From positions 1 through 64,000 of the IMG/VR virus record IMGVR_UViG_3300025141_000036: a DNA stretch of 64,000 nt; one strand, given 5' to 3'. Below, piece by piece: positions 35,789 to 52,909 of the stretch. The stretch is from a virus. The notes under the pieces were generated by a model that saw only the letters and a list, made by a program, of their open reading frames with translations, ran no database searches and was not told the origin of the DNA. A program made the position numbers and the translations under genes. How positions within the stretch are numbered: position 1 is the stretch's first letter; each line of letters begins with the position of its first letter.

Positions 35789-37295
35789 TCTTTACCACTC
35801 GTAAATTATAAATAAATGGTTGTTCCTCATAAGTTAAAGTATCCGGATCATAAACCGAAAATGTTATCCCATATTGATAATTGGGTTGCAACATTGAACA
35901 GTTTAGATCAAAATAATTTCCAGAAACATCATAGGATAGGCGCGTTGCTTGATCAGAGCCCGTATTATAAGGAATGACAACTTTACTATCAGACACTCTA
36001 ACTACCTGATAAGAAGAACTTTCAAAAACTAGGCTATTTGGCACAGTTGTTGCTTTCGTATAGATGTTTGGGGACCAATTCTTCTCTCGGGCGTAAAGTC
36101 TTATTCTGTGGGTCTGATTATGATAATAACTCTGGTTTTTATTGCTTACGGCGAAAACATATTTAGGGGTGTAGGAATATTGCAGTGCTGCTGATCTTTT
36201 GATCGCGATAGAGCCTGTTGAAAATTGATTGGCTGAATCCCTGGCATCTGTTGCAGAATTGCTTCCGCTCCACCACACATCATAAACGGTTTCAATGGTG
36301 GACGAACCTGTATAGGCAAAAGAAGCAGAATAGATTCCTTTTGAAACCCAGCCGCCTGTTACTGCATATTGGTTCGCAGACCTCACATAGTCACTGTCGG
36401 CTACTAATTTTAAGGCTGGACCAGTCGGATCAGTTGACCCAGAAAATAAACTAACCATTATTCCACGCTCTGCTGTTCCAATAGAAGGAATGTTGGATAG
36501 TCGACCTCTAGCATAGTTATAAAGATAAATTGTATTTAAATTGTCTGGGCCTGAAACTAGGGATGAACTTAAGTAAAACGATCCACGATCATCTAGTTTT
36601 GCTGAATCCCATCGGGCTTCAATAACCGGCCTCTCAAACCAATTGTGCGAATTTCTTCCAAAGAACATCTTAGTGTAATAGGATCGATCCTGCTCGGCTA
36701 ATGAATCAGCAATGCGAATAACCACCCCATTGTTGGTTTCTTCACCGTCTACCCACTTATTAACAAGCGAAGTGATGTCTACCTCGAGGTTTTCATCGCC
36801 AACCGGGAACGCTGCGGAATATATAATAGATCCTGAGGCTCCGCCGGTCTTCGGGCTGGGGACAGTGCCCCATATTTGAGAACCCGAGCGCATAATCCAG
36901 TTAGAACCGCGAATGTCATAAGTCAAATCGGAGTAGTCGTTCATGTCTAGTCCGAGGCCCTCTTGCCACTCTTCAGTAACGTTCAGAATCTCTAAAGTAT
37001 AGTCACGCGGCAGGGTCTGTGAACTTTTACAATTATATAACTTTAAATAAAAGGAAGACCCAGATGAAATTGCGCCGGATGTCTTATCTGCTGCCACCTG
37101 AGTGCTATCAAATTGTAACAAAATATTGGCCTTTTCTCTTTGGAGACCTACTGAATTTGAGACCTGGCCATAAATTGTGAACACCTCTAAAATGTCAGAC
37201 TGGCCCATGTTGGACCCTGTTCCTCTGGTAGCCAAATCACTCTCATAAGCATTCGTTACTGTATTGTCCTTTGTGGCATAATATCTTTTTATCAT
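35778..37295 (-). CDS. Baseplate-associated structural protein (DNRLRE/CBM96-like N-terminal domain)
   Basis: ATKDNT...ILLQFD...LKLYN...EVDITSLVNKW...NNGVVI...RPVIEARWD pattern; follows gp6. Confidence 0.55.
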   Translation of the reverse strand: MIKRYYATKDNTVTNAYESDLATRGTGSNMGQSDILEVFTIYGQVSNSVGLQREKANILLQFDSTQVAADKTSGAISSGSSFYLKLYNCKSSQTLPRDYTLEILNVTEEWQEGLGLDMNDYSDLTYDIRGSNWIMRSGSQIWGTVPSPKTGGASGSIIYSAAFPVGDENLEVDITSLVNKWVDGEETNNGVVIRIADSLAEQDRSYYTKMFFGRNSHNWFERPVIEARWDSAKLDDRGSFYLSSSLVSGPDNLNTIYLYNYARGRLSNIPSIGTAERGIMVSLFSGSTDPTGPALKLVADSDYVRSANQYAVTGGWVSKGIYSASFAYTGSSTIETVYDVWWSGSNSATDARDSANQFSTGSIAIKRSAALQYSYTPKYVFAVSNKNQSYYHNQTHRIRLYAREKNWSPNIYTKATTVPNSLVFESSSYQVVRVSDSKVVIPYNTGSDQATRLSYDVSGNYFDLNCSMLQPNYQYGITFSVYDPDTLTYEEQPFIYNLRVVKNEH

Positions 37296-39091
37296 TTAAT
37301 TAAAGTCCCCTTTATATCACTATTCGGATATTTTAATTCCATAATTACATTTTTTGGAGTGTTGATATAAGTCCCATCTTTAGATAGCGCGTCGGCGAAA
37401 CTTATGCGGGTTGATGAATAGGGGCCACCAAATTTTTGATCAATGCTAACCTTTTTTACATCCGAGACTCCCTCAACTTTTCCTAACACACTGTAAAGGC
37501 GACTGATATAAACTGGTTCTCCAATGTATAATTGATTAGAATAATACTCTTTCAGTCTGGCTACGCACCTTCCAATAATATCAAATTGAGAATATCTATG
37601 GTCAACTGTTACCTTAAAATCTACACCAAAGTTTACGACCTTCGCATCATAAATATCTACAACATCATTAAGTGATTTATATTGCATAATCCATGTCTTA
37701 AGGTTGCTTTTTATCTTGGAGTTACAAGTAGTTAGTTTTCCATCTGAGTCTTCAGAAATAACATAAAGAGCCAATCTGCGGTTAGTTGCACTTGGGTCAT
37801 TCACTACACTTGCCCTCTTAACTGTTCCAAACTTCTTGGGCATGTTATAGATCATCGACTCATAATCTTGCCTTGTTACTGCTCTATTCTGAGAGGCATA
37901 AAAGGATTTTGCTCTTTGTTTTAGTTCTTCATTTGTCAATTGTTCTATGTCGCCCACTATAGGCTCTTCGTTCGTAACTTCCAATGAACCTAAGACATCA
38001 GCTTTACCAATTGAGGACAAAGTTTCTGTGTTATCAAACTCCATTTTGACACTCTGCACAGTTGTGATTGTGTTGACTGCCGCATTAATGTTTGCATTAT
38101 CATTTGACTTAACGATGATAGTTAAATTAGTACCTGACGGGGCCACTCCGAGCTTGTTAGTCTTTAGCAACTTTGATGGATCGAAAGACATTTTAGAAAT
38201 ACTTTTCTTCCCAAACATCTTAATAGCTACTTGAGAAGGGTCAGCTATTTCATCAACGCCGTCGTCTTCAGAGCCAAACCCAAATTGTAAATAGGTTCCC
38301 GTATCGTCTTGTTCTAAAACAAACCTACGAGATGCCACATAGGGTTTCATAATGCTCCTAACTCCATCGCTTAAGGCATCCTTGTTGGTGGTTTCCTGGA
38401 ATACTACCTCTTGAGATAAATTTTCCACTTCGTAATAATCATTTCCGTCGGAATCTTTAACTGAAATAATCTCTGAAATCAATGATCCTCCGACTCTAAC
38501 TTTCCTAAACTTCTTGAAAGTAGCGTTGGCCAAGTTCACATCTACACGCTGGTAAATCCCACTGACTACTTGTCCGAAGGCCTTCACTGCGAAGTATGTG
38601 GTTGCTCCCGTGCTTGGATTAAATCTAGCAGCAACAATTTCATTTTTGGGATCGGAGAATCTCACATCTTCTGTCAAAGTATAGGTACTTGATGCAGCTC
38701 CGAAAGAAGATCCCTGTTTTATGGTGGGCAGATAGGCAAAGTCAGGAGCTGTTCCATCACCATTAGCTGGTATTAAACAAAACATTGACACAATCCCATA
38801 AGCATTAGGGTTTCCTGCGAACTTATATCCCATGGCCCGTGCGTGTTTGCGAATATTATTAAATTCTAAAGCGGTGTCCAGGAAACTTTCATTAGCAGAG
38901 TAATCTACGTAATATGACAAAACATCTCCTACATAAGCGACTGTGTCTAACATTAAGGAGTTGATTGTTGATTTAGAAAAGTCCTTCCATTCTGCGGAAT
39001 AATATCTCTTTGCATGATTGAGCAAATCTCTTTTGATAGACTCATAATCTCTGCTGGTGTAATTAATGGGTGTTTTTTTTAATTTTGACAT
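37292..39091 (-). CDS. Baseplate wedge subunit, T4 gp6-like
   Basis: INYTSRDYESIK, AYVGDVLSYYVD..ANESFLDTA, HARAMGY, QNRAVTRQDYE. Confidence 0.9.
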   Translation of the reverse strand: MSKLKKTPINYTSRDYESIKRDLLNHAKRYYSAEWKDFSKSTINSLMLDTVAYVGDVLSYYVDYSANESFLDTALEFNNIRKHARAMGYKFAGNPNAYGIVSMFCLIPANGDGTAPDFAYLPTIKQGSSFGAASSTYTLTEDVRFSDPKNEIVAARFNPSTGATTYFAVKAFGQVVSGIYQRVDVNLANATFKKFRKVRVGGSLISEIISVKDSDGNDYYEVENLSQEVVFQETTNKDALSDGVRSIMKPYVASRRFVLEQDDTGTYLQFGFGSEDDGVDEIADPSQVAIKMFGKKSISKMSFDPSKLLKTNKLGVAPSGTNLTIIVKSNDNANINAAVNTITTVQSVKMEFDNTETLSSIGKADVLGSLEVTNEEPIVGDIEQLTNEELKQRAKSFYASQNRAVTRQDYESMIYNMPKKFGTVKRASVVNDPSATNRRLALYVISEDSDGKLTTCNSKIKSNLKTWIMQYKSLNDVVDIYDAKVVNFGVDFKVTVDHRYSQFDIIGRCVARLKEYYSNQLYIGEPVYISRLYSVLGKVEGVSDVKKVSIDQKFGGPYSSTRISFADALSKDGTYINTPKNVIMELKYPNSDIKGTLIK

Positions 39092-39133: not shown

Positions 39134-39505
39134 TTAAGGAGTCACATAAAGGTTCAAAACCTCAGAAAAGGCCGAATTTGAAATAGAATAGTTTATTGAC
39201 ACCCCCAGGGCATTTGAATCTATATTGTCCATTTCAAATTCAACACTATTAATGGTAATATAGGGCATGTATTCACCAACTTGGGAATAGATTCTAGACT
39301 CGACCTCATCATTCGGGAATTCGATATCCAAGGAGAATAGGTAATTTGGCAGACCTACACCAAAGTTACCACTCATTGCATACTCCCCGGGTCTAGTCAG
39401 TAATAAAAATTTAAAATTTTGTTTAATTGCCTCAGATTTTTGCTCATCTGTGAATGATGCAAACCCTGCGGTTCCCATTTGTATAGGTAAAATAGTTGAA
39501 ATCAT
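39134..39505 (-). CDS. Baseplate wedge subunit, gp25-like
   Basis: AIKQNFKFLLLTRPGE...FGVGLPNYLF...YMPYITI; adjacent to gp6. Confidence 0.88.
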   Translation of the reverse strand: MISTILPIQMGTAGFASFTDEQKSEAIKQNFKFLLLTRPGEYAMSGNFGVGLPNYLFSLDIEFPNDEVESRIYSQVGEYMPYITINSVEFEMDNIDSNALGVSINYSISNSAFSEVLNLYVTP

Positions 39506-39516
39506 TTGTTGTCTCC

Positions 39517-42500
39517 TTATCTGAACATTTTTTGGAAAGAATTAAGACAATCCTGGCCATCGGCATCAAACGGCTTTATGTCTACAAAGCGTATACGCTG
39601 CCACCATTGAACACTAGAGTCTAAATTCATAAAAGCTTGGGGGAGCAAATTCTTAAGAAATTCGCTTTTTTCTCTCTTTGATCGAGGTTCGTTCTCTTCT
39701 TTCTCGTCATCATCTGTGCGATAAGTAGCGTTGAAAAGTTGTCTTAGTTTTTTCTTTGTTTTATCAAACAGAGCTTTTTTCCATTGCTCTCTCAGTTTAC
39801 CCGGGTCTTCATCTACTTCGTCTGGGTTGCTAAGATCCATGCCTATAGATTCAAAGAACCCGTAAAATGAATAAACTCCATAAAACGAAACAAATGATCG
39901 GGCTGGAAAACATGTGTCAAAAAGAACCTTGAAATCTTCTTCTTTGGTTAAGTTGTCTATATAACACTTTAATTCTTCTCCCATGTTTTTGCCTTCGAGA
40001 TCTAAGTCTCCAACAGGCCTATCTTTAATGTCTTGCTCAAACTCAACTACAGGAATGGCTCTTGAGAGCGACTCTTGTTGCACAGTTATGCCGTCCAAGG
40101 ATTCTATTATTCTCTCCTTTAAGGCTGTGTTTCCTAGAAGAGTTTCCAACCACGCATGCACACTCTCGTCCACTTTCAAAGAAACTTCAGGGACTCCGAT
40201 CGTATACGTCCTTTCTTTCTGATTGTCTTCAGGTGCAGTGTAGTTAAATTGAGGAGGAGGACTATAAATAAGACGTACTCCAAACTTCACCCCTATGGTC
40301 CCCATAACTTCATCCTCTACTATATAAGCGTTGCCAAAAAACTCAGAGATATTTTTAGAGGGATCCAAAACCAAAGTTTCTAAAGAAAGATCTTCGGATT
40401 GTGTAATAGCCACTCCTGGTTCATACGCCTGCAACTTTGAGGCTATTAATTCTTGAAATTCCGGAATGCTTAAAACTCGTTCTTCACCATCTTTTGTATA
40501 TACTCTCACATATTTCTCAAGATAAAATAAACCATTTTGAAAAAGAGTAATCATATTGGAGACTTTTCTTTTTAAAAATTCAGGAATAGCGGCGGGAGGA
40601 GTTTCAAGAAGGCCCTCGGAAAAGTATGCCAATGCATCGTCGTGCTCAGCGGGGATGGCCAGATTGGCAGCGGTTACCGTAATCTCTTGATTATTAAAAG
40701 GGTTGTCTACTTCCACATCTCTTACTACATTAAAGATGTCACCATAATCGAAACCAGTTGAACCTTCGACGGCTGGTTGCTCTATTTTCATCTCTCCTGA
40801 TCTTAGAGAGGATCCGAAAAGAATGCCATTACGAGATAGTAAATATTTTTGTATGTCTTCTATATGAGGACGGGGCCGCATATTCAAATTAATTTTTTTC
40901 ATTAACAATGACAATTCATTTTTTGCCAACGCTCGTAAAATTACCTCTGCTGCTGCGCGAGATTCATGAAGCGAGTTTATTTTTCTTGCTAGTCTCAGTT
41001 TGAAAGGGCTTAGAAAAGCGCAGCGGGTCAGCAAAGTACCAACGAGATGGGCTTGGGCCGCTGTTATCGCGGCAGGGCCGCCTACAGCAAGCAACGCCAG
41101 ACTCTTTAGTAATTCTTCAGTAAGAACGTTATCATAATCTTGCTGCCAGTCTTCTCCGAACGCAATAATCGCTGCTCCTCGGAAGGTGTCACTTATTGAA
41201 TCCCAAGGCATATTCTCCCAATCAAAAATATTTATTTTTATAGGATCATAGTTTATTTGCGTCGTTTCGATAATCGTGAACGCGTTCTTTATCTCTTGAG
41301 TTTCTTCCATTAACCCATCTTGAATTTGACGTTGTACAACTTGAACTGCTTGCTCCAAGAACATCAAATAATAAGTATATCCCTGAACCATATTCCAGCT
41401 AGTTGTTTGTGCTGTCAGGCCATTTTTCATCTGTTGTATGATGAGATTTAAAAATGCATTATCCACGTTTTTGCTGGACAATTCTATTCCGCTATAAACG
41501 GGAAGAGTTTTAAATATGTATTCTGAACAATATACTCGCATAGTAGAGAGCACGACCCCTTCCATTATCCCATGGGTTGCTGATGAAAAATGCTTATCAT
41601 AAGGAACCTCTATTCTGCAGTCTGGTGCTAACGAGAGTCTCTCATCGAAAGGCAAATTATCTTCCACTTCTTTAGCTCTCTTGGCTATCTGAGTGATATT
41701 GAGAAACCCGTTGTCCTCTTTTTCACAAGACTTTAGCTCTGGTATAAAAGTCCTTATCATCCCTAGCCAGCCATTGTAGCTAGCTGGTTCTACATAAATT
41801 TTTGGGAACAAATAATTTCCACCATGAATCGAAGGATCCAAGAAATGTACTCTGGGATTTTCTGTTGCGCTTTTTCCTAAAACCCTGTCTCCGGGGAGAT
41901 GAGTATACACCCAAGACGACTTGTCGTCTGGGGATGCGTCGGGGTTAACATACCACAGATCTGCAAAAGTTAAAGGCTCTCCGCCTTCGTAGCCAAATCT
42001 AAATCCCGTTGGGATGTCTCCGCTTGGTGTTTGAATTACCGCATTCTGTACACACTGCAGGACCGTCTTGTTGCCTCGATCAAAAGCCTTCATCAAAACT
42101 GCTGGGTTTTGTTCGATAGTACCACTTATTTTAGATTCCAACAGTGATTTAAAGATCAAGGCCTGATATGGCAACTCCTCTTGGTTATCAACATAATTGA
42201 AATTTAAATACTTAGTGGCCTTAAAATCATTATTTACTTCTAAATCTAAAGAAACCATGGGTGGCAAAGATTTTTTCGAAAACAATCCGTAATCAAGACC
42301 TAATCTCTCAGCTTCTGCCTCTGTTATCTTATTTCTAAAGGTTTCCACCACCTCAAGCTGATAAGATGGCTTTGCTACTTTTCTTAATTTAAAGTTAAGT
42401 TGGAACTCGTATGAGGGAACAGATTCAAATGAATTAATAAATTGCTTGGATACTTGTGCTTGGGGAGTAGTGGATCTGTTCGAAAGGTAGCTCGTGTAAC

Positions 42501-45500
42501 TTTCCATCTGAGTTTTCATTAAAGACCCCACTGTCTTAGGGTAATTCCCTAAAGGTTTTGGCTCAGGGTTGAAGACCGGGATGGGCTCCATCCTTCCTGA
42601 AATTAAAATGTTACTATTTTCCTTCCGAAATTCCCAATCCGCTGGTGAGTTGGTATAGTTTGGAAAAAAGAATGGCGAGTCCGCTCTTCTTTCGTGTTTT
42701 TTGAGTCGAAAATTGTTTTTGTCTCTCAGGATATTGTTTAAAACTGCGTTTCTCCTACCAATTAATTCTCCCAGAAAGGATCTGTCTATGTTTTCAAACA
42801 TGCTTTTAATCATTTCCAACTTTGTTTGTCTCAAAGATTCGTCTTCAAAAAGGAGGGCGCTTTTGTCGTTAACGCACCCAGGATCCCTACTGGGGTCCAG
42901 CAAGGAGTCTACGGCGTCCCCTAGAATCCCATCGGTTCCTTTTTCTAAGTAATCCAATAAATCCCCTATATCTTCATCTCGCTTGCCGTTTGCTTGATCT
43001 ACTAGGTCTCTAGCAGTGGCTGGGTCAACACCAAGGTTTTCGTAGATATTTGCACGCTCTTCGTTCCAGGCGTCCAGCTCGGGTTGAGTTAAACAAACTG
43101 CATCATATAAAGGAGTCTCTTCATCTGTGAGGGCTTGGTCTCGCAGGGCTTGTCTCAATTCGGGCGGGATGTAGTTTCCTGCCTGGCCAAACACTTCTGC
43201 TACTTGGCTCGGGGTCCCGAAGACATCAGCCAGTTCAGGATGCACAGTGGCAACTAATTGTGATAAATCTGTTAAAACCTTCGCATTCATATTTTTGGGA
43301 GTGTTTGTCAACAATCCTACCAGGTCATTCTTAGACATTGTAGAGTTCATTGACTTATAAAGATCGTTATAGCTTTGGTCGGTAATGCCTGATCCTACAA
43401 TGCCCGATGCTTTGAAAATGTTTTTCTTTGTGTTATTGAGTTCATCTTCTGATGCGTCTGGGCAAAAAGCTTCTGCAAAAATAGAATCCAACCCTGCTGT
43501 TTTGCCCGAGGCTAAATCAGCTGCGGCCATGCCTACGGCATTCAACCCTTTACACAAAGCACTATCTATACCTTCTAGGACTTTTAAAATTAGACGCTTA
43601 ATAACTTCCGTAAGCAGTCCCTCTATTTTACCTGCGAATTGCTTTTTTAACACTAGCAGTGCTGATTTATCAAAAAAGCCAGGGATTTCCTTTATTTGAT
43701 CAGGAAAGCCGATTCCTATTCCGCCATCGCCGCAGACATCCAGAGTAAAGGTAGACAAGAAACTATCTATAGGGGGCTTAAACATTCCTTGATAAGCACA
43801 AGTGTAGTCTCCTACAAATTTATACAAAATGTCTGATCCTGGGAATCGATCTAATATTTGCATTAACTCATCTATTTCTACAATATCTAGTAAAAATTCT
43901 ATATAAGCATCTACCACTAGTTTTTGTATATTACCTAATGCTACACCATAAGTGCCCTGTTGCCCGCCGGGTGAATCTTTGCCAAGTTCATTTTTGGTGA
44001 TTTGCCGCCGTTCCTTATCTGTTAATTTTGACCACTCTTCCGATAGGCTTTTTCGTGTTGCCGAGGCAGATCTGCCAATATAACTATTTCCTGCTTTTGC
44101 TTGTTGTTTGCGTCCCCAATCTCTAATCGCCATGGCGCCGGGTGACAATTCATAGCCAGACTGCTCTTGTTGTTCATATCGAGCATCTATAAGAGCTTGA
44201 GTGTCAGCCATCATTTGCTCTTGCTCTCGGCGATATGCCTCGGCTTTGGCTGCAGCTTCTTCTTGGGCTGCTTGGGCTGCAGCTGCCATAACTTCTCTTT
44301 GTTTCTTTCTTTCTTCTTCTATAACAGCCTTGTCCCATTCTTCTAGAGCTGCTTGAGTTAAAGGAATCAGTTTTTTAATCTCTTCAACTGTTTTGTCTCT
44401 TCGCATTAATTTAGTACGACTGGCGTTTTCTACCAGATAGGCTTGGGTGTTATTATACCACTTTACATAGTTATCGTAATGAAGGAGATTGTCATCTCTA
44501 GGAAAATCCATGTGAAAATCATAAACACCTTTAAAATCCTTAAACGCCTGGGTAGTAACCCTTGCGTCCCAGTATAAAGTAATAAATTCATACCACGCTT
44601 CTTTGACTGGGGTTCCTGATGAATATCCTTTATTCTTTCTCCTTTGAATATAGGCTTTCCAAGATTTATCAGCATCTTTTAAATGTTGTTCTGTTGGGCG
44701 TTTAATGGGATCGGGCGCAGGGGGTGTAGCTACAATCTCTTCTTCAGAGATTCCTGTATAGCCTGGTAGTTCCATATCTGGTTCTTCCGGGGTTTCTTCT
44801 ATTTCTGGTTTTGGAACTTCCGGGGGCAATTCTTTTAAATATTGAATGTATAAATTAGTGTTCTCTATTGAACCGGGGTCATAATCTTGCTCCCATGGGA
44901 GAGGGAGATTGCCAAATTCCTGCTCGAAAGCTTTTCTGAGTTCTATTTGTTTCTGTGGTGGCAAGTTGTTAATGAAAATTCCAAAAACATCAAGATCCAT
45001 AGCTTCTAAGGATGCTTTTACTATTTTTGTCAGCGCATCATCTACAGTTACACCCGAAAATAAGCATCTAACTGATTGGATTGTTAAAGTCTTTAAATTA
45101 CAAACTGACATTCTTTTTATCAATTTTACTAAATCAAGTTCTTTCATATTCTTGAAATTTAGTCCCCCCTTTTTCAAATAAGTCGCCTTGTCCACGATAG
45201 ACTCCAAAAGAGTGTCTTGTTGTGCAAACTCTTCTAGAGCTGCCTCATATCCAATTCTCCAATAAGGATCCTCTTTGGGTTTTTTGCTTTTATTGTGTTG
45301 CTGTCGAACATATTTAGATGCGGCTCTAGAGTATTGCCTTTCTTTATTGTTTGTCTGTCGGTCTGTTTTTTTTATTTTCTTTTGAATCTCTTTAATTTTT
45401 TCTTGATTCTCTTGAATCCCTTTCATCCAACCTGCAAGTTCCGTGGGGCTTGTCCATTTTTGTTGAAAATCAGGATCATAAACAGATTTTAAGCTATTAA

Positions 45501-47142
45501 ACCTATCAATCTTTTGTTGCAGTATAATAATTTCGGATTCTAGGGCTCTTACTTTCTTCCATAAACGTTCTTTTTCTACTCGCGCTTCTTCGATTGCTAT
45601 ATCCCGGGCTTCCTTCTTAGCTTGTTTAACTGAGTCTTTCTTCTTTTTTCTTTCTGATTCTGGGATTTTTACTTCGTGTTCTTGATCCAGATCACCGAAG
45701 TCAGTGCACGAATTCTTATTAAATTCGTATTGAATAAAATCGGAGACAGACAGGGACTCGTTTAAAATGTAATCTCGCAACTCCACAGCATGATTTTTTA
45801 TGTTTTCTGATACACACTGCAGTCCTTCTTCTTCTAGGGATTTCTCCGAAAATCTCCCGTAATCAACGGAAAGCAATGGATAGGTAAATTTTATTAAAAA
45901 ATCCATCCAGGGATAAGATTTGCGGGATCTCAGAGATACATCTATCTCATTTAATTTAGCTATGTAGTTCCAAACCGTTGCGTCAAAAGGTGACGGGCTA
46001 CCAGAAAGCTTAGACATTCCTTGCGTCCACTCTTCATATGGGCAACCTTTCTTTTTAGACTCGATTTTAAGAACCTTGTAGGGCTTGTCAGTGTCGGAGT
46101 TATCAAAGGTGATTTTCACCAACCTCGCATTGTTTTTAATTACACTCGGTATATTCGATCGAATATTCCACCCATTGTCTAAGCCTACATCTTTCAACGT
46201 CGTGTAAAGAGTGCCAATTCTTTCACTATATGTTGAGGCATAAAAACTAATTTTACTCTCTTCAATCGGAACATATAAATAGCCCTTCTGAACCTGTAAA
46301 AAGGCAGACTGATATTGAGAGTAAACCCACATTGCTGATTTCAATCTTTGAATTTGTGCCCATAACTTATCGGTTGTTAAGACAACCTCTGATTTTAAGT
46401 TTACTGCTTCTTTTTCTATTTTATCTCTGGTTGGATTATCTGGGACTTTTTCTAAAATAAAAGACGGAATAGCTATCAAAACTTTTAATAACCCACCTTC
46501 ACCCTCTACTAAAGTCCACTCCTTAGGATAAGCATAGATTTCCAAGGCTAATGGATTTTTGATTTGTGGCAATTTTGCTGATGCGCCTATTAAATTTTGA
46601 GTAAACTCCGAAGGATCCTCGGGGTTTAAAAAGGGAGAAGTAGGCAAGTCAATGTCTCGGCATGCGTTGACTCTATCTTCTGCTGCCATCACGGGGTCAA
46701 GAGCCAATGCAGCATATGCATCCTCATAATCCTCATAGGTAGTTATGATTTCGGCAGGGAGCATATCCAAAGCTGGACCAGTGTGATAGGCACAAATGAT
46801 CTGGTCCGCAATGAGCTTGCCATATTCCTCCAACATTAGTCTAATTCCGGCTTCGACATAGCTTCTTAATAGCTTTCTCTTCTGGGTTCGACTCTCTGCG
46901 GTTTCGCCACTTGGGAACATGTTAGTTGGGCTAACCACATAAGAATCACCAAATTTGTTTAAGGTTACACACACCATAAATTCGCAAGTTTTTTCATTAT
47001 AAAATGGCTCGGCAACCATCTGAGTCCAATTTGGAACAATATAGTTGGGGTTGGGCTTACATGCAGGACAAATCCTCTTTAAAGGCTCTCTTTCCGGTGG
47101 CTCGCACACATTTTTTTGAAATTCACTAAAATTTTCTGCCAT
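39517..47142 (-). CDS. Very large, mostly helical virion-associated protein (2541 aa), function unknown
   Basis: Intact ORF between spike-like and gp25 genes; charged coiled-coil, P/E-rich and Ala-rich segments. Confidence 0.55.
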   Translation of the reverse strand: MAENFSEFQKNVCEPPEREPLKRICPACKPNPNYIVPNWTQMVAEPFYNEKTCEFMVCVTLNKFGDSYVVSPTNMFPSGETAESRTQKRKLLRSYVEAGIRLMLEEYGKLIADQIICAYHTGPALDMLPAEIITTYEDYEDAYAALALDPVMAAEDRVNACRDIDLPTSPFLNPEDPSEFTQNLIGASAKLPQIKNPLALEIYAYPKEWTLVEGEGGLLKVLIAIPSFILEKVPDNPTRDKIEKEAVNLKSEVVLTTDKLWAQIQRLKSAMWVYSQYQSAFLQVQKGYLYVPIEESKISFYASTYSERIGTLYTTLKDVGLDNGWNIRSNIPSVIKNNARLVKITFDNSDTDKPYKVLKIESKKKGCPYEEWTQGMSKLSGSPSPFDATVWNYIAKLNEIDVSLRSRKSYPWMDFLIKFTYPLLSVDYGRFSEKSLEEEGLQCVSENIKNHAVELRDYILNESLSVSDFIQYEFNKNSCTDFGDLDQEHEVKIPESERKKKKDSVKQAKKEARDIAIEEARVEKERLWKKVRALESEIIILQQKIDRFNSLKSVYDPDFQQKWTSPTELAGWMKGIQENQEKIKEIQKKIKKTDRQTNNKERQYSRAASKYVRQQHNKSKKPKEDPYWRIGYEAALEEFAQQDTLLESIVDKATYLKKGGLNFKNMKELDLVKLIKRMSVCNLKTLTIQSVRCLFSGVTVDDALTKIVKASLEAMDLDVFGIFINNLPPQKQIELRKAFEQEFGNLPLPWEQDYDPGSIENTNLYIQYLKELPPEVPKPEIEETPEEPDMELPGYTGISEEEIVATPPAPDPIKRPTEQHLKDADKSWKAYIQRRKNKGYSSGTPVKEAWYEFITLYWDARVTTQAFKDFKGVYDFHMDFPRDDNLLHYDNYVKWYNNTQAYLVENASRTKLMRRDKTVEEIKKLIPLTQAALEEWDKAVIEEERKKQREVMAAAAQAAQEEAAAKAEAYRREQEQMMADTQALIDARYEQQEQSGYELSPGAMAIRDWGRKQQAKAGNSYIGRSASATRKSLSEEWSKLTDKERRQITKNELGKDSPGGQQGTYGVALGNIQKLVVDAYIEFLLDIVEIDELMQILDRFPGSDILYKFVGDYTCAYQGMFKPPIDSFLSTFTLDVCGDGGIGIGFPDQIKEIPGFFDKSALLVLKKQFAGKIEGLLTEVIKRLILKVLEGIDSALCKGLNAVGMAAADLASGKTAGLDSIFAEAFCPDASEDELNNTKKNIFKASGIVGSGITDQSYNDLYKSMNSTMSKNDLVGLLTNTPKNMNAKVLTDLSQLVATVHPELADVFGTPSQVAEVFGQAGNYIPPELRQALRDQALTDEETPLYDAVCLTQPELDAWNEERANIYENLGVDPATARDLVDQANGKRDEDIGDLLDYLEKGTDGILGDAVDSLLDPSRDPGCVNDKSALLFEDESLRQTKLEMIKSMFENIDRSFLGELIGRRNAVLNNILRDKNNFRLKKHERRADSPFFFPNYTNSPADWEFRKENSNILISGRMEPIPVFNPEPKPLGNYPKTVGSLMKTQMESYTSYLSNRSTTPQAQVSKQFINSFESVPSYEFQLNFKLRKVAKPSYQLEVVETFRNKITEAEAERLGLDYGLFSKKSLPPMVSLDLEVNNDFKATKYLNFNYVDNQEELPYQALIFKSLLESKISGTIEQNPAVLMKAFDRGNKTVLQCVQNAVIQTPSGDIPTGFRFGYEGGEPLTFADLWYVNPDASPDDKSSWVYTHLPGDRVLGKSATENPRVHFLDPSIHGGNYLFPKIYVEPASYNGWLGMIRTFIPELKSCEKEDNGFLNITQIAKRAKEVEDNLPFDERLSLAPDCRIEVPYDKHFSSATHGIMEGVVLSTMRVYCSEYIFKTLPVYSGIELSSKNVDNAFLNLIIQQMKNGLTAQTTSWNMVQGYTYYLMFLEQAVQVVQRQIQDGLMEETQEIKNAFTIIETTQINYDPIKINIFDWENMPWDSISDTFRGAAIIAFGEDWQQDYDNVLTEELLKSLALLAVGGPAAITAAQAHLVGTLLTRCAFLSPFKLRLARKINSLHESRAAAEVILRALAKNELSLLMKKINLNMRPRPHIEDIQKYLLSRNGILFGSSLRSGEMKIEQPAVEGSTGFDYGDIFNVVRDVEVDNPFNNQEITVTAANLAIPAEHDDALAYFSEGLLETPPAAIPEFLKRKVSNMITLFQNGLFYLEKYVRVYTKDGEERVLSIPEFQELIASKLQAYEPGVAITQSEDLSLETLVLDPSKNISEFFGNAYIVEDEVMGTIGVKFGVRLIYSPPPQFNYTAPEDNQKERTYTIGVPEVSLKVDESVHAWLETLLGNTALKERIIESLDGITVQQESLSRAIPVVEFEQDIKDRPVGDLDLEGKNMGEELKCYIDNLTKEEDFKVLFDTCFPARSFVSFYGVYSFYGFFESIGMDLSNPDEVDEDPGKLREQWKKALFDKTKKKLRQLFNATYRTDDDEKEENEPRSKREKSEFLKNLLPQAFMNLDSSVQWWQRIRFVDIKPFDADGQDCLNSFQKMFR

Positions 47143-47144
47143 TC

Positions 47145-48173
47145 TTACATTCCTATATAAACTGTTGAACTCAACAGTCTTTCTGTTTTGGAGCCCTGTA
47201 GGACTCCGTTCTCTGTACCTAAAGCCTTGAAGGTTTTCATGTGCTGTTGATACGTCTTAATAATAGAGTCCACATTCGTTTCTAAAAAAGCCGGGATGCT
47301 CTTGGCTGCTTGAGTAGCAGCATTTACAGAAGGGATGGTCTGGACAACACCCAGGCCGAAGCCAGTATGGGTATGAAGAGCCATTGCTGTTTTGTATTTG
47401 ACAAGATTAAACTCAACATCCATAACCCGGTTTCTTAACGTTTGAATCTCCTCGTTTAATGATCTCAAATATTTAACTAAATTATCTCCTAGAACTGCTG
47501 GTTGTGCGCTATCGTCTCCAATTTGGGCGATTTCAATACGAGGAGTTATATTCTTGTTGTAGTTAACAAGCCTTTCTACACCTTCGGCTTTTGAAAACCC
47601 TACTAAAATTCTGACTCGTTCGCGGCCTATAATCAAAGTGTGATCAGCTTTTATCCCTATTCCCGATTTCATAGTGGAAGTAATTGAGGTAGCGGGGGAT
47701 CCATCTCCTACTGCGAAGTAATGTTGAATATCTCCCCTCTCTGTTAAATAAATTCTCGCGCCGTCTGAAATAAAGTTGGCTCTGGTTTCTGTTGAAGAGG
47801 TTTTTATTCTAGCTTCACAACTAAGAGCCCCAGCAACAATGTCTATAGCTTCACACATAGTTCCACCTTGGCCTCCAACACCAGTTGCTCTAGAACCATA
47901 ATTATCCTTGGTAAAAACAATTCGGCCGCCTTGGTTTTTTGAACCTTCTTCCACCCGGGATAACACTCTTTCGATTGCACCTTTGGGTCCAAAAACTGGT
48001 AAATCCTCACAATCTTCCGTTAAAAAAACTCCGGACTTTTGAGGCATAAATGGAGAATTTATCTCCCGATCTATACACTCTTCTATCAATCGACGGTCAT
48101 CCTTAAGAGCTGTGTACGCGCCAACTAATTTTACTTTTTTAGGTCCGCCTTTTTGCAAAGGATTAAAAGCCAT
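47145..48173 (-). CDS. Baseplate central spike-like protein (gp5/gpV C-terminal-like)
   Basis: Start reassigned to 48173 (GGAGG SD). QPAVLGDNLVKYL and ALHTHTG (HxH metal-binding tip motif of spike proteins). Confidence 0.55.
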   Translation of the reverse strand: MAFNPLQKGGPKKVKLVGAYTALKDDRRLIEECIDREINSPFMPQKSGVFLTEDCEDLPVFGPKGAIERVLSRVEEGSKNQGGRIVFTKDNYGSRATGVGGQGGTMCEAIDIVAGALSCEARIKTSSTETRANFISDGARIYLTERGDIQHYFAVGDGSPATSITSTMKSGIGIKADHTLIIGRERVRILVGFSKAEGVERLVNYNKNITPRIEIAQIGDDSAQPAVLGDNLVKYLRSLNEEIQTLRNRVMDVEFNLVKYKTAMALHTHTGFGLGVVQTIPSVNAATQAAKSIPAFLETNVDSIIKTYQQHMKTFKALGTENGVLQGSKTERLLSSTVYIGM

Positions 48174-48174
48174 T

Positions 48175-49329
48175 TTATGTTTCTCCTCCACCAACATCTT
48201 GTGGTGATTTTTTAATGATCCCTTTGAGGTCTATCCATTCGAAATGCCATGGTTCATCGGGACCTTTCGCTCCTTCTAAAGCCCACGGTGGGTTATGAAA
48301 ACCAAATCTTGGAGCATGCTCTTTCATCCATTTGTAAGTAGCCGATCGGTATCTTTTGGATCCATATACTTTTTTACCTTTGAGGTTGCAAACTTTCCAG
48401 TCAATGGCCAAACCCCATCCGTGTCGGGATCTGCCTGGGGTGGCTGCATATTCTGAAGTTCCAGCTTTTATGTTTCTTATTTTAGTGGAAACTTGCCTGT
48501 CGTAACTTCTGACTCCACTCGCAGTTCCTGCTATGGAAATTTGAAATCCGAAATGTGCATTGAATGCATCTTCTATCTGGTTCCAACTAGGGATTATGTC
48601 TTTCACAACTATTGTTCCTTGATTAGTCACACCCAATAATTCTTGTGGAAATGAGCCATTATAAACTGGCTTATTGTGCCAACCGGAGACGTTGCCTACA
48701 TAATATCTCTTCAGAGGCGCAGGAAACCCAGAGTGTCCCGTAGTTCTAACGGAATCGGATCCGTTTGGTGCATTCGGAATGTTTGAGAGATCCGGGGTCC
48801 CTGAGTTGTAAAATTGCCCCATAGTTTCTTGATCCCAACTGTTTGCAAACGTTTGGAATAGACTATCCTTTTCTCTAAGGTTCAAAAATTTCTTAGAGAG
48901 GCCCACTCTTTGCATTAAGACTATGGAATTTTTCTTTCCTTCTGAATGGTATCTAGCAGACCAGATTTCCCCTTCTTGAGGGCTCCTTCCAGCCTCTTGC
49001 ATTACAAATCCAATTGGGTGCATATTTATTAATTTCTTTGTCATTTGAACATCGGGTTCACTAAAAGGATCGGGGAATTCTAAATCATCGTTGATATAAC
49101 TCCTCACTCTACTAAAGAAATACGCAGGCTCTTGAGGATTATTAGTAGCTGGGTTTCCATGAGCAGATCCTCGAAATGGATTACTGCTTTTTTCTCCAGA
49201 CAAAACCACCACTTGAAATATCTTTGGTTCTTTTCTTTGATTATGTTTTACCACCGCATGTTGCAAGTTTTGGCGATGTAGGTTGATTTTTTCAACTGCA
49301 CCCATAAGAATAGCAGGAACTTCTATCAT
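48175..49329 (-). CDS. Shared N-terminal domain + M15/VanY-type Zn peptidase (D-Ala-D-Ala carboxypeptidase/endopeptidase)
   Basis: SGVRSYDRQ, ATPGRSRHGWGLAID (SxHxxGxAxD), EPWHFEW. Confidence 0.82.
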   Translation of the reverse strand: MIEVPAILMGAVEKINLHRQNLQHAVVKHNQRKEPKIFQVVVLSGEKSSNPFRGSAHGNPATNNPQEPAYFFSRVRSYINDDLEFPDPFSEPDVQMTKKLINMHPIGFVMQEAGRSPQEGEIWSARYHSEGKKNSIVLMQRVGLSKKFLNLREKDSLFQTFANSWDQETMGQFYNSGTPDLSNIPNAPNGSDSVRTTGHSGFPAPLKRYYVGNVSGWHNKPVYNGSFPQELLGVTNQGTIVVKDIIPSWNQIEDAFNAHFGFQISIAGTASGVRSYDRQVSTKIRNIKAGTSEYAATPGRSRHGWGLAIDWKVCNLKGKKVYGSKRYRSATYKWMKEHAPRFGFHNPPWALEGAKGPDEPWHFEWIDLKGIIKKSPQDVGGGET

Positions 49330-49334
49330 TTTCT

Positions 49335-50666
49335 TTACCCCTTGGCTAAATCACGTATTGCTATAGCACGTGGGCTTTTATCGATTGCAGCCCTGACTTG
49401 ATTAATGGCATTCATTGATCTGTCGGCGTCTGCTTTATTTACAGCCCCTTGCTTGTTAACACCAACACCACCATAATATTTAACATAAGCAGGGATCCAC
49501 TTTCCTTTTCTATATGCCCCTTTTTGTAATCTTATTGATGCAAACTCATAAGCCAAATCGTTTCCGGCTGACTTTGGGCTTACGCTGTCTCCAAATAAAT
49601 AGCGGCCGAGTGTTTTTCTCTTCATCGAAACCAAGTAAATGCCTAAAGCATTTTGATTTAATTTATTAAATTGATCACCTGTGTTCAAACCCTGGATTCT
49701 ACTGACAGCACTTTTGAAAGTTTTGGGAATTATCTGGTAGCCTCCGGTGGCAAAAAGACGTCCATTTCCTGCTGTTATGACTTTTGCGCCTTTTGATTGT
49801 CCAGCTCTGACTTGAGCAATTGACCATTGTGATAATGGTCCCCAGCCAGTTCCAATGTAATTAGTGTTGCCTATATAACCAGGCTTTCCATATCGGGAAT
49901 AGTAATTAAAAGCATCGTACTGTTCACCATTAAAGTGTTTGGTTGCACAACCTTCTCTAGAGCACTCGTGTTGTCTTATGTTGTTTAACAGTGGTTCAAA
50001 GATCCCCATACCTGCTAGTTCTTTTAATTGAGCCCACGTGAAGTTTAAACGACCTTTGATTTTTGTCCCTTGAGAGACTCTTACATTTACAACTGGTTCT
50101 GTGATCTCACCATTGGGCCCTACTTGTGCAACATCGCCGATGATGACAGGGCTATGCCTGAGATTTTCCCAAACATTTGCTGCTTGTTGGTATAAACTAT
50201 CCTTCTCTTTAAGATTTAAGAACCCTTTATCTACCCCCACTCTATTAATAAGAATTATCCCTTTTCTATCTTTTGTTAAATAACGACAAGTCCAGATATC
50301 CCCTTCTTTGGGGACAAGGCCCGTTGATTTCTCCAAGACACCGATCGGGTGCATATTAGCCAACTTCTTTGTCATCTTCACATCTGGTTCTTTAAACGGA
50401 TCCGGCGTGGTTAATTCATCTATATCTTTTCTTCTTATTCTCGCGAAATAATATGAAGGCTCTTGAGGGTTATTAGTAGCGAGATTACCATGGGCAGTGC
50501 CTACGTGAGGGTTATTAGAATTAGTTTCACCGCCTGATAAAACCACCGCTTCGAAGATTTCAGGTAACACATTAGAGAATGTTTTACTTATAAAACCGAA
50601 TTCTCTTTCTCTTTTGAGAGAAATGCGATTTAAAGCAGTCATAATGTTGGCGGGGACATCTATCAT
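49335..50666 (-). CDS. Shared N-terminal domain + lysozyme-like (lambda-type/GH104-like) domain
   Basis: IRQHE...YDAFN, ATGGYQIIPKTF, FNKLNQNALG, LAYEFAS. Confidence 0.72.
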   Translation of the reverse strand: MIDVPANIMTALNRISLKREREFGFISKTFSNVLPEIFEAVVLSGGETNSNNPHVGTAHGNLATNNPQEPSYYFARIRRKDIDELTTPDPFKEPDVKMTKKLANMHPIGVLEKSTGLVPKEGDIWTCRYLTKDRKGIILINRVGVDKGFLNLKEKDSLYQQAANVWENLRHSPVIIGDVAQVGPNGEITEPVVNVRVSQGTKIKGRLNFTWAQLKELAGMGIFEPLLNNIRQHECSREGCATKHFNGEQYDAFNYYSRYGKPGYIGNTNYIGTGWGPLSQWSIAQVRAGQSKGAKVITAGNGRLFATGGYQIIPKTFKSAVSRIQGLNTGDQFNKLNQNALGIYLVSMKRKTLGRYLFGDSVSPKSAGNDLAYEFASIRLQKGAYRKGKWIPAYVKYYGGVGVNKQGAVNKADADRSMNAINQVRAAIDKSPRAIAIRDLAKG

Positions 50667-51910
50667 GATGGAAAAACCCTATCGACTGCGTCTGCTCTTT
50701 TTTTGCGGTGGCTTGGATCATGACTATTATTAACATAATCAGCTAAAGATTCGTTTGGAGTTCTTTTACCGTTTGAAGAGTGCTTATCTACACCCCCAGA
50801 GCCTGCTGAGTTTCTGATTCCTGCTATTATTGCAAGATTTCTATTAGTTTTAGGCCAACCATAGCCTGCTAGTTGTGCTTCGGATGTATCTGCATATTTT
50901 CTTTTCCATACCGCTCTCTGTATGTCTCTGGTTTTGGGGTGTTGAACAAAACTTTCCCAACCTTTTCTCCACCAAGGGTGTTTATAATAACAAGGGTTTC
51001 CTTTTGACTTCTTTGTACAAGTCTTGTTGAAAGCCTTAAGTGCGGAAGAAGATTTGCCGAACCAAGTTACAATGATCTCCTCCCCTAGCAGCTCAACTGC
51101 TTTATCCACTAGCGGATTCAAAGTTTCTCGCTGCCAGTGGGCTATACCTATAATGCCTCTACCATCTACAGGGCAAACCTCATCATACCGTTTTCCCCAT
51201 TTACACTTTTTGTCTCCTTTTATACCAGCGTCCAGTGCAATAATAGATTCTAAAGTAATAATCCACCAGTCTGGAGTGTATTGTCCCGGGGCCGTCGGCT
51301 TTGATTGGTAATAGACAACATTAGGGTTTGTGGGACCTTTATTTTTTGGGGCTTGATATTGTTGCTGGGGCTGTTGATAACCTGAACCTATCAATTGTGG
51401 TTGATTGCTGGACCATTCTGCTGCGGATGTTTGATACATGCTGTCTTTTGTGGTCAAAGATAAAAACCCCTTATCAACATCTACTCTGTTAATCAAAAGA
51501 ATAGTGGCCTTATCGGGCCCCAGAAACCTACAACTCCATATATCTCCCTCCTTGGGGATTACATTCGCTTTATTATTCAATAAAACTCCCAGAGTGTGCA
51601 TCACAGCTAGCTGTTGTGCCATTTGTTTGTTGGATTCTAGGAACGGGTCTGGTTTATTTTCTTGTAATGCTGCCACCTTGCGACACCTAACAAAATGATA
51701 GTTTTGTTCCTGGGGATTATTATTCGCGGGATTACCATAGGCAGTGCCGATATTAACATTATTGCTTTTAAAACTAGCAGCAACCACAACAGCATTAAAA
51801 ATTTCCCCTTCTTTGTTGTAATAATCTCTGGCTATCGTTTCGAAACTTTGTTCATTAGTCAAAGAGATTCTATCTAGCATCGAATGGATTGAAGCTGGAA
51901 CCTCGATCAT
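50663..51910 (-). CDS. Shared N-terminal domain + divergent putative lysozyme-like domain
   Basis: N-terminal ~170 aa paralogous to the two downstream genes; C-terminal DGRGIIGIAHWQ resembles lysozyme-fold G-x-x-Q/HW motifs (weak). Confidence 0.5.
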   Translation of the reverse strand: MIEVPASIHSMLDRISLTNEQSFETIARDYYNKEGEIFNAVVVAASFKSNNVNIGTAYGNPANNNPQEQNYHFVRCRKVAALQENKPDPFLESNKQMAQQLAVMHTLGVLLNNKANVIPKEGDIWSCRFLGPDKATILLINRVDVDKGFLSLTTKDSMYQTSAAEWSSNQPQLIGSGYQQPQQQYQAPKNKGPTNPNVVYYQSKPTAPGQYTPDWWIITLESIIALDAGIKGDKKCKWGKRYDEVCPVDGRGIIGIAHWQRETLNPLVDKAVELLGEEIIVTWFGKSSSALKAFNKTCTKKSKGNPCYYKHPWWRKGWESFVQHPKTRDIQRAVWKRKYADTSEAQLAGYGWPKTNRNLAIIAGIRNSAGSGGVDKHSSNGKRTPNESLADYVNNSHDPSHRKKRADAVDRVFPS

Positions 51911-52197
51911 TTTTCATCTTCCTCTGATTTTTGAATTTGGTCGAAAATTTGTGCGAAATCTTTTTCCGATAGCTCATCTGATGATTCTTGCTTGGTCATT
52001 AGGCCACAAAGCTTAACCAATTGTTCGTTCGACCGCTGTAATGTTTCTACATATTTTGCTAGTGTCATTCCAATAGTTTGATGTCTTGCGTCGTCAACAG
52101 CAAGCCACTTAATGGCATCATCGAGCAATTCTCTCGTTATTTCCCTATCATCTTCAAGGTTTTTAATAGCTTTTTCAATGTGTTTTTTACTTTTCAT
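51907..52197 (-). CDS. Small helical hypothetical protein (96 aa)
   Basis: Intact coupled ORF; coiled-coil character (AKYVETLQRSNEQLVKL). Confidence 0.65.
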   Translation of the reverse strand: MKSKKHIEKAIKNLEDDREITRELLDDAIKWLAVDDARHQTIGMTLAKYVETLQRSNEQLVKLCGLMTKQESSDELSEKDFAQIFDQIQKSEEDEK

Positions 52198-52216: not shown

Positions 52217-52909
52217 TCAAATTTTCCCGTCATCCCAGTCTTTTTTAAAGTCCTTATATCTACTTCTCATTTTATTAAGATGTGTCACAACCTGTTTAGT
52301 GTTCATCCCAGTAAGCTCCCGTAAATAAAGATAGATGGCTTTTTTATTGAAAATTTCAATGTCGTCTACTGACGATAAAATTATTTTTACCGCTTCGTAA
52401 ACTTTTTTCTCACCTTCTTTTTCGTAATCAACCTCCCAGGAATTAATCTCACCCCATAGGTTTTCCCAAAACTCTTTTGTCGATCTTTCTTGATAATAAT
52501 GATCTCCGGGATCAACAAAAGAAGTCTCCAGTTCTAATTCTGCATTTTCATATGGTACTTCTCTTTGGAGTCTTTTTGTGTTCTTTTTTACTTTATGTAT
52601 AAACCAATTTTTAGTTATCACACTAAAATAAGAAAAAGCCTTTGATCCACGATTTGGATCATATTTGTCTAAAATGGTGGTGAGCCAAACTTTGCACTCC
52701 ATCCTAAGTTCATCAATGTTTGGCAAGTTTGTAAACTTATAGGAAAATACAATCTTATCAACCATCTGATTAAACGCTGGTTGTATCCATTTTATGTATA
52801 GCTGTTCTTTTTCTGCATGATCATCGCTGTTGCAAAAATCAAGAATTGCCTGTTCGTGTTCCTGCGTAAAATACATTTTGCTCTTTGCTTTCTTCTTCAC
52901 TTTTCTCAT
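52217..52909 (-). CDS. Phage RNA polymerase sigma factor, T4 gp55-like (late transcription)
   Basis: MYFTQEHE start region and sigma region-2-like LDKYDPNRGSKAFSYFSVITKNWFI; GGAGGAG SD. Confidence 0.72.
   Translation of the reverse strand: MRKVKKKAKSKMYFTQEHEQAILDFCNSDDHAEKEQLYIKWIQPAFNQMVDKIVFSYKFTNLPNIDELRMECKVWLTTILDKYDPNRGSKAFSYFSVITKNWFIHKVKKNTKRLQREVPYENAELELETSFVDPGDHYYQERSTKEFWENLWGEINSWEVDYEKEGEKKVYEAVKIILSSVDDIEIFNKKAIYLYLRELTGMNTKQVVTHLNKMRSRYKDFKKDWDDGKI

Follow-up and report, generated by a model that had tools for sequence, protein, structure and literature searches.

A probable split gp5: putative tandem tail-tip carriers with exchangeable cell-wall hydrolases in an uncultured marine T4-like phage

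Introduction

The gp5 protein of phage T4 comprises an oligonucleotide/oligosaccharide-binding (OB) domain (residues 1-129), a lysozyme domain (174-339) and a beta-helix (389-575) (PMC4576200). It is cleaved during assembly, with the C-terminal fragment staying in the baseplate, and is found in the virion as two associated chains (PMC4576200, its reference 5). Here we describe three adjacent genes, termed pA, pB and pC, from the IMG/VR virus record IMGVR_UViG_3300025141_000036, which encode a common N-terminal domain followed by three different C-terminal domains. The window, meaning the whole stretch of DNA that was analyzed, is the first 64 kb of this 112,401-base record, which has an estimated completeness of 62%. 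Like T4 gp5, the encoded proteins are predicted to combine an N-terminal OB domain, a linker and a cell-wall hydrolase, and their genes lie in a baseplate module. The enzyme part (gp5*) and the needle (gp5C) of the T4 virion are two chains derived from one gene, whereas here the two parts would be encoded by separate genes. All three window proteins end with the enzyme domain and, unlike T4 gp5, carry no beta-helix needle on the same chain; the enzyme is one of at least 15 unrelated domains across the family rather than a T4-type lysozyme, and up to three copies are present. The needle candidate, a 342-aa protein encoded directly downstream, also differs from gp5 in possessing a coiled coil and an invariant His-x-His (HxH) motif with no recognizable gp5 repeat. 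Overall, we propose that this locus probably encodes a split gp5, in which a gp5*-like carrier with swappable hydrolases has been triplicated in the window phage.

Several described systems share parts of this design. The hub protein gp15 of the Anabaena myophage A-1(L) (PDB 8KEA) has been shown to possess dual hydrolytic activity (PMC10966104), and the window phage would likewise have a myophage tail tip with several hydrolase activities, as predicted from its genes. In A-1(L), lysozyme, endoglucanase and peptidase reside on one hub chain together with a gp27-like barrel, in contrast to the single OB carrier per enzyme encoded here. Evolved VgrG proteins and other effectors of the type VI secretion system (T6SS) similarly join a conserved spike-associated module to variable enzymatic 'warheads' that are exchanged by recombination. 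In VgrG, by contrast, a single chain comprises the gp27-like, OB and needle parts, the effector follows the needle at its C-terminal end, and the targets are rival cells, whereas the window carriers would act on the wall of the phage's own host and no immunity genes lie beside the cassettes. The Tal proteins of Gram-positive siphophages and the RaK2-like spikes of jumbo phages, which carry a C-terminal lysozyme, are further modular virion proteins with exchangeable wall hydrolases. A survey example is provided by PMC10194240. The structural module of these lysins is Tal/gp27-like or a full spike, unlike the OB anchor of the window proteins. A literature search returned no description of split gp5 carriers or of tandem shared-OB arrays with different enzymes. 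Modular tail lysins and evolved VgrGs are well known, and split, tandem gp5-type carriers would be a variant on them.

Results

The genes pA (415 aa, 50663-51910), pB (443 aa, 49335-50666) and pC (384 aa, 48175-49329) lie in tandem on the minus strand, as do the genes around them. A first-pass annotation of the window had described three tandem paralogs with a common N-terminal part of ~170 residues and different C-terminal domains, and both the open reading frames (ORFs) and their alignment agree. All three proteins begin with MI[ED]VPA, their alignment contains 55 invariant columns in the first ~166 residues, and the N-domains are 40-53% identical in pairwise comparison. The motifs highlighted in that annotation are present among the invariant columns, and include G[ST]A[HY]GN..NNPQE, PDPF.E, MH..G, P.EG[DE]IW..R and FL.L..KDS. 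Past residue ~170 the three proteins are unrelated, a forced global alignment giving 25-30% identity, which is the noise level. The N-domain, encoded at ~51401-51910 in pA and ~48814-49329 in pC, is followed by a linker in each case (rich in Gln and Pro in pA) and then by the C-domain. The similarity lies far outside what chance would give. A profile constructed from the three N-domain sequences, which matches that of pA at 9.5e-95, retrieved 54 cluster representatives among 1.84 billion proteins, with 41 at E ≤ 1e-10. The domain is always N-terminal in the matched proteins, which range in size from ~300 to 530 aa.

To describe the fold of the shared domain we used an AlphaFold model of pB built from a 38-sequence alignment, with a mean predicted local distance difference test (pLDDT) score of 82.9. 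The modelled chain begins with a helix (residues 11-31) and a five-stranded OB barrel (~34-145), continues through two helices to ~170 and a disordered linker (171-200), and ends in a well-defined C-domain (~205-443). A fold search was conducted against 48,161 representative chains, and a second comparison was made with the 1000 chains that Foldseek ranked best. The T4 gp5 entries 2z6b, 1wth and 1k28 head the second search with a Z score of 6.7 and a root-mean-square deviation of 3.4-4.6, the alignment placing residues 34-174 of the pB model on gp5 7-129 over 96-100 residues. In contrast, generic OB folds in the same search reached Z scores of 5.2-5.7 with only 63-75 residues aligned. The proposal of the first-pass annotation that the shared part is a gp5-like OB domain is thereby upheld at the level of a predicted structure. 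Matches to the barrel in the first search included the P1 baseplate spike (Z 6.9), a gp5-sized chain of Klebsiella phage KP1 (Z 5.8, 1-129), VgrG1 (4uhv, Z 5.7), Afp8 (5.5), the PVC spike (5.4) and the Mu spike (4.8), together with ribosomal and other generic OB folds at Z 5.0-5.7; VgrG 9mlp aligned with the pB model at Z 5.1-5.6. Among viral structures, a Foldseek search of BFVD returned a 951-aa 'Gp5 N-terminal OB-fold domain containing protein' (E 3e-8, 426 columns), a Gp5/Vgr OB protein of Agrobacterium phage Atu_ph07, and proteins of phiM12, Vibrio phage Kuja and Synechococcus phage S-T4 that are named as baseplate hub or tail lysozyme. On visual comparison, the final two strands of the pB barrel (P-K-E-G-D-I-W ... 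Y-L-T-K ... G-I-I-L) also resemble their counterpart in T4 gp5 (P-V-E-G-T-R-V ... F-L-D-K ... G-I-V-L), a similarity that no sequence method confirms. In the model, then, the fold and domain order of the N-terminal part are those of the N-terminal part of gp5, and homology between the two is likely.

Two further features of the domain deserve mention. The BFVD entries A0A1B1IUR3, A0A1B1IUT8 and A0A1B1IUR4 (456, 440 and 472 aa), which have neighbouring accessions, all match the pB model, and one of them is the best BFVD match (E 6e-14); they may represent another three-copy array in a deposited genome. A loop with the sequence G-T-A-H/Y-G-N ... N-N-P-Q-E connects the first two barrel strands (pB residues 50-70, 50460-50520 on the minus strand) and is also present in pA and pC. 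This loop is strongly conserved in the window clade and absent from distant members, and its pLDDT in the model is low (49-62). It may bind a partner in a clade-specific manner.

The C-terminal parts point to three different activities. Residues 269-366 of pC (~48232-48525) match Pfam VanY at 4.5e-14 (52.8 bits versus a cut-off of 25), and the zinc-ligand motifs of M15 peptidases (H-x6-D and a later H) can be read in the translation as SRHGWGLAID and WHFEW. These data support the earlier assignment of an M15 domain, and the C-domain of pC is a predicted VanY/M15 zinc peptidase. The C-domain of pB has no Pfam match, and its assignment as a lambda-type lysozyme, also made in the first-pass annotation, draws on structural comparison. 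Its alignment with lambda lysozyme 1am7 (Z 10.2) includes 150 of 154 residues, and its best structural match is the lysozyme domain of gp15, the hub protein of cyanophage A-1(L) (Z 10.3), with the lytic transglycosylases SLT70, MltC and MltE and phiKZ gp144 at Z 4.6-5.2. A HECS motif is found in 11 of the 12 pB homologues, the twelfth having YEVA and so still keeping the Glu, and GGYQI is conserved in all 12; the HECS Glu lies near the start of the domain and is a candidate counterpart of Glu19 of the lambda enzyme. We therefore describe this domain as a predicted lambda-type lysozyme/lytic transglycosylase fold.

The C-domain of pA (~50663-51310) has nine homologues of ~405-424 aa, all of which carry the N-domain, and this family possesses an invariant E221 and the motif DGRGIIGIAHW. 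Pfam, PHROG and PDB sequence searches gave no match to the domain. Two weak leads point to Phage_lysozyme2/SLT: an Atlas feature score of 0.88 with TM 0.38-0.40 to PF18013/SLT clusters, and an hhalign match to a PF18013-type cluster (probability 21%, E 0.0011, 21 columns). Of the original claim of a third lysozyme-like domain, these leads survive and a family assignment does not, such that a lysozyme-like C-domain in pA is a guess that fits. PDB sequence searches with pA, pB, the 342-aa protein and their profiles otherwise produced chance or coiled-coil matches only.

Comparison of related loci was used to follow copy number and cargo. Relatives were located via the conserved 342-aa gene, which afforded 20 viral and 80 metagenome loci, and then with an iterated N-domain profile, the three-sequence alignment having proved too specific (a scan of viral contigs gave no match). 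Counting was restricted to de-duplicated loci bounded upstream by a gp55-like gene (62 orthologues used), for a total of 48. One carrier gene is present in 44 of these, two in L026 and L034, and three in L032 and L039. The lengths of the interval fit these counts, at 1.25-2.2 kb for one copy, 2.6 kb for two and 4.0-4.15 kb for three, with 4.0 kb in the window; six loci that an interval filter scored as zero each have exactly one N-domain profile match. All loci of sufficient length exhibit a fixed order of gp55-like gene, ~98-aa gene, carrier or carriers, 342-aa gene, giant protein, gp25 and gp6.

Every multi-copy array mixes different C-domain clusters: VanY and an unknown domain in L026, DUF2272-like, unknown and M15_3 domains in L032, SLT and an unknown domain in L034, and VanY, pB-type and GDSL-like domains in L039. 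The 72 unique carrier proteins fall into at least 15 unrelated C-domain clusters, and the cargo of the family as a whole includes VanY, M15_3/4, M23, SLT, GH19, Muramidase, Phage_lysozyme2, Amidase_2, DUF2272 and GDSL, with a phosphatase-like domain in the C-part of one cluster representative. The GDSL/SGNH-like cargo of the carriers in L039 (3392-4675) and L041 was detected at a Pfam value of 1.7e-4, below the cut-off; if real, it would be predicted to be an esterase, perhaps of the peptidoglycan/polysaccharide deacetylase type, and not a hydrolase of the peptidoglycan backbone. A close relative of the window phage with at least two carrier copies is probably represented by P0187 (a pA-type carrier) and P0176 (a pB-type carrier), whose N-domains are 60% identical, and by the spike-like protein P0056, which is 70% identical; the longest contig recorded for each of the three has 11,072 bases.

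Phylogenetic analysis separates the history of the carrier from that of its cargo. In a maximum-likelihood tree of N-domains, paralogues cluster by phage and not by enzyme, with support of 100/100 for the L026 pair, 99/98 for the L032 trio and 100/98 for the window trio with L026. C-domain type changes 27 times on this tree versus a minimum of 14, and VanY accounts for 4 changes in 4 rows. An ancient set of A, B and C paralogues common to all multi-copy phages was considered and is contradicted by the tree. The most direct view of exchange is provided by closely related pairs. Between L077 and L080, DNA identity is 98.6% from upstream of the carrier to ~codon 155, similarity is absent across the C-domain, and 98.6% identity resumes where the 342-aa gene begins; the pairs L028/L029 and L076/L088 have the same breakpoints, at ~codon 155 and the stop codon. 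Such near-identical pairs that differ only in the C-part indicate that the carrier is inherited with the phage and that the enzyme is a cassette. Polymorphic effectors are defined by a conserved N-module, by C-terminal enzymes that vary, and by close relatives in which the C-part has been replaced; all three features are found here, and the cassette swaps between near-identical phages bear out the likeness to polymorphic VgrG effectors that had been drawn from the window alone.

These counts and trees bear directly on how the three window proteins might assemble. The first-pass annotation had envisaged a heterotrimeric or interchangeable drill, and a designed heterotrimer would have the paralogues co-assemble 1:1:1 on the three-fold axis to give one peptidase and two glycosidases per spike. 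The number of copies fits the three-fold symmetry that gp5-type spikes have, exactly three are present in each of the window, L032 and L039, and translational coupling of the genes favors equal amounts of product; the window N-domains, having diverged to 40-53% identity, could also encode specific interfaces. Against this stand the 44 single-copy and two two-copy loci among the 48, and the predominance of single-copy loci implies that the docking module works as a homo-oligomer. Clustering by phage likewise leaves no conserved A, B and C lineages, and the N-domains within the L026, L032 and L034 arrays are 76-90% identical, which suggests that the carriers are probably interchangeable at one site. 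We consider a designed heterotrimer decidedly improbable, whereas the cassette swaps strongly support the interchangeable half of the earlier claim.

The genomic neighborhood provides an independent indication of function. The stop and start codons of the upstream 96-aa gene and pA, and those of pA and pB, overlap as ATGA, only 5 nt separate pB from pC, and a single nucleotide separates pC from the 342-aa gene. From this spacing, pA, pB and pC are predicted to be packed as one translationally coupled operon. Homologues of gp25 and gp6 are encoded 8.7-11 kb downstream in the same operon direction: a gp25-like baseplate wedge/sheath initiator at 39134-39505 (Pfam GPW_gp25 2.8e-9; phrog_261 1.9e-19) and a gp6-like baseplate wedge subunit at 37292-39091 (phrog_6 5.8e-24), both on the minus strand. 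Gene content thus indicates a distant T4-like myophage in which the array lies at the predicted head of the baseplate module.

This setting also bears on whether the three proteins might be soluble endolysins that act from inside at the end of infection, with the N-domain serving as a wall-binding or regulatory module. Their cargo families (M15, lysozyme, amidase and SLT) are the same as those of endolysins, no other endolysin was detected in the sequenced part of the genome, and the top BFVD list includes lysins and signal-anchor-release (SAR) endolysins that match via the C-domain. The N-domain fold, however, best matches the gp5 N-domain and spike OB domains rather than known wall-binding modules, and in every relative the genes lie inside the late baseplate operon and overlap structural neighbors. 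No holin-like or spanin-like neighbor was seen beside them, and the true endolysin may lie elsewhere, given a record that is 62% complete. An endolysin role is, in our assessment, highly improbable.

The 342-aa protein encoded at 47145-48173 on the minus strand is probably the separate needle or spike part (gp5C-like), an assignment based on family conservation and weak leads. Its gene starts at 48173, the longer ORF from 48197 not being the gene call (P0055, 342 aa), and in related loci it always directly follows the carrier gene or genes. The family includes more than 208 protein clusters at ~50% identity and is much better conserved than the carriers. A long helix is predicted for residues 229-266 and is immediately followed by the invariant residues H267 and H269, a motif that we take to recall the iron-binding HxH apex of P2 gpV-type spikes. 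A Gly-rich stretch accompanies the His-x-His after the long helix (residues 229-279), and ~70 more residues follow the motif. In a PDB sequence search the 342-aa profile matched trimeric coiled-coil fragments, and Atlas returned DUF2345, Gp5_C and Gp5_trimer_C as weak leads (0.82-0.84). An hhalign comparison of the profile with T4 gp5 was not significant, and a comparison with the N-domain profile yielded nothing. The protein is probably trimeric. Of the spike-like gene that the first-pass annotation placed directly downstream, position, conservation and probable trimerization hold, and its identity as a spike or needle is plausible, unproven.

Several results weigh against a split gp5. The fold match to gp5 stands only ~1 Z unit above generic OB folds, and sequence methods do not reproduce it: a search of the whole record with Pfam Gp5_OB (PF06714) and Phage_base_V (PF04717) was negative at E ≤ 10, comparison of the N-domain profile with T4 gp5 by hhalign gave a non-significant probability of 0.2%, and BLASTP against T4 gp5 a non-significant E of 0.62. 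No cultured relative was found among 50,697 GenBank phages by megablast with the region or by tblastn with the N-domain and the 342-aa protein. A gp27-like hub was not found in the 62%-complete record with Pfam PF09097, and Pfam Phage_lysozyme and Amidase_2 detected no further endolysin there, which leaves room for a role in lysis. The AlphaFold monomer of the 342-aa protein has a pLDDT of 46 and was unusable for a fold search; monomer folding often fails for intertwined trimers. Finally, a non-significant hhalign match hints at an OB-like stretch within the 342-aa protein itself, in which case this protein would be a complete spike and the site of the carriers would be unclear.

With no gp27-like hub identified and so narrow a lead over generic OB folds, the carriers might be borne in the virion at another site, where the OB module would bind the 2541-aa product of a neighboring gene, the end of the tape measure or the interior of the tube, and the enzymes would be ejected cargo. 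OB folds are generic binding modules, the giant neighbor has no assigned role, and the possible OB-like stretch of the 342-aa protein would be compatible with such a site. The N-terminal helix of the carriers, moreover, resembles the A-1(L) spike helix that holds the tape measure (PMC10966104). Three points count against another site: the match to gp5 spans the whole N-domain, at 96-100 residues versus 63-75 for generic OB folds; gp5 and gp5-named viral proteins have the same order of OB domain, linker and hydrolase; and the carriers lie immediately before the spike-like gene without exception. Docking elsewhere in the virion therefore appears unlikely.

The remaining neighbors complete the picture of the locus. 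The giant 2541-aa protein (39517-47142, minus strand), encoded between the spike-like gene and gp25, has no match to a Pfam or PHROG family and contains a long K/E/A-rich coiled stretch. An orthologue of 2170-2670 aa occupies the same place in every related locus that is long enough, and the protein may hold the missing hub or tape-measure functions. Upstream of pA, the 96-aa gene (51907-52197, minus strand) encodes an acidic helical protein, with a gene of ~98 aa at the same place in all related loci. Its C-terminus (DFAQIFDQI and an acidic tail) presumably recalls the tails with which T4 late-transcription factors, gp33 among them, bind the sliding clamp. A gp55-like late sigma factor (52217-52909, minus strand; phrog_234 5.6e-5) forms the upstream boundary of the array. 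The T4 late-promoter consensus TATAAATA is absent from the coding strand near the array, and a simple and uninformative scan found no noteworthy terminator- or promoter-like site interrupting the coding strand of the array.

The closest cultured relatives by gp6 are Microcystis phage Mel-JY01 (32%) and Flavobacterium phage immuto (29%), and the N-domain and 342-aa profiles gave nothing significant against Mel-JY01, immuto or T4. Mel-JY01 encodes a 'putative chitinase' two genes before gp25 (L025:11948-12979, PP395634), to which the N-domain profile has no match, suggesting that a wall hydrolase lies at the head of the baseplate module in this phage too.

Discussion

On the reading that we favor, a split gp5, pA, pB and pC would be baseplate-hub proteins that match gp5* (OB plus lysozyme) and are encoded apart from the needle part. 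The N-terminal helix and OB barrel would constitute a docking module at the tail tip, beside the 342-aa product and the hub, and the flexible linker would bear a peptidoglycan hydrolase for local digestion of the wall on tail contraction. We infer that the carriers would be present in the virion, would dock as trimers, would share a site among the three copies and would be enzymatically active.

The docking module would be inherited with the phage, and the enzyme part often replaced by recombination. From an ancestral state of one gene, duplication would have occurred in the window phage and independently in a few relatives, with the copies in the window acquiring an M15 peptidase in one case, a lambda-type lytic transglycosylase/lysozyme in another and, in the third, a domain that is probably lysozyme-like. 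Three co-expressed carriers would then compete for, or share, one docking site, and tail tips would deliver a peptidase to the wall together with one or two enzymes that cleave glycans. With different enzymes on the copies, the virion population, and possibly each virion, would thus possess several bond specificities.

A stronger version of this mechanism, in which single virions carry a mixed trimer with a peptidase and two glycan-cleaving enzymes around the needle as a symmetry-breaking, multi-enzyme cell-wall drill, we regard as doubtful. Were it true, copy number would be selected to match three docking sites and the make-up of the drill would be re-programmable by cassette exchange. The two- and three-copy arrays make testable whether a three-fold spike carries mixed subunits.

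If the split-gp5 reading is correct, the classic gp5 'cell-puncturing device' would exist as two genes in a large uncultured marine T4-like group, with the enzyme-bearing half of gp5 serving as a standard carrier. The combination of OB anchor, linker and enzyme would represent a natural plug-in design for placing hydrolases on a contractile tail, and the cargo domains so catalogued, at least 15 in number and in several cases without a known family, offer candidates for new peptidoglycan-active enzymes. The wall enzyme of the tail tip would also be among the fastest-exchanging parts of these phages, and such rapid turnover would suggest that host cell-wall chemistry is a selective barrier to entry beside receptor recognition.

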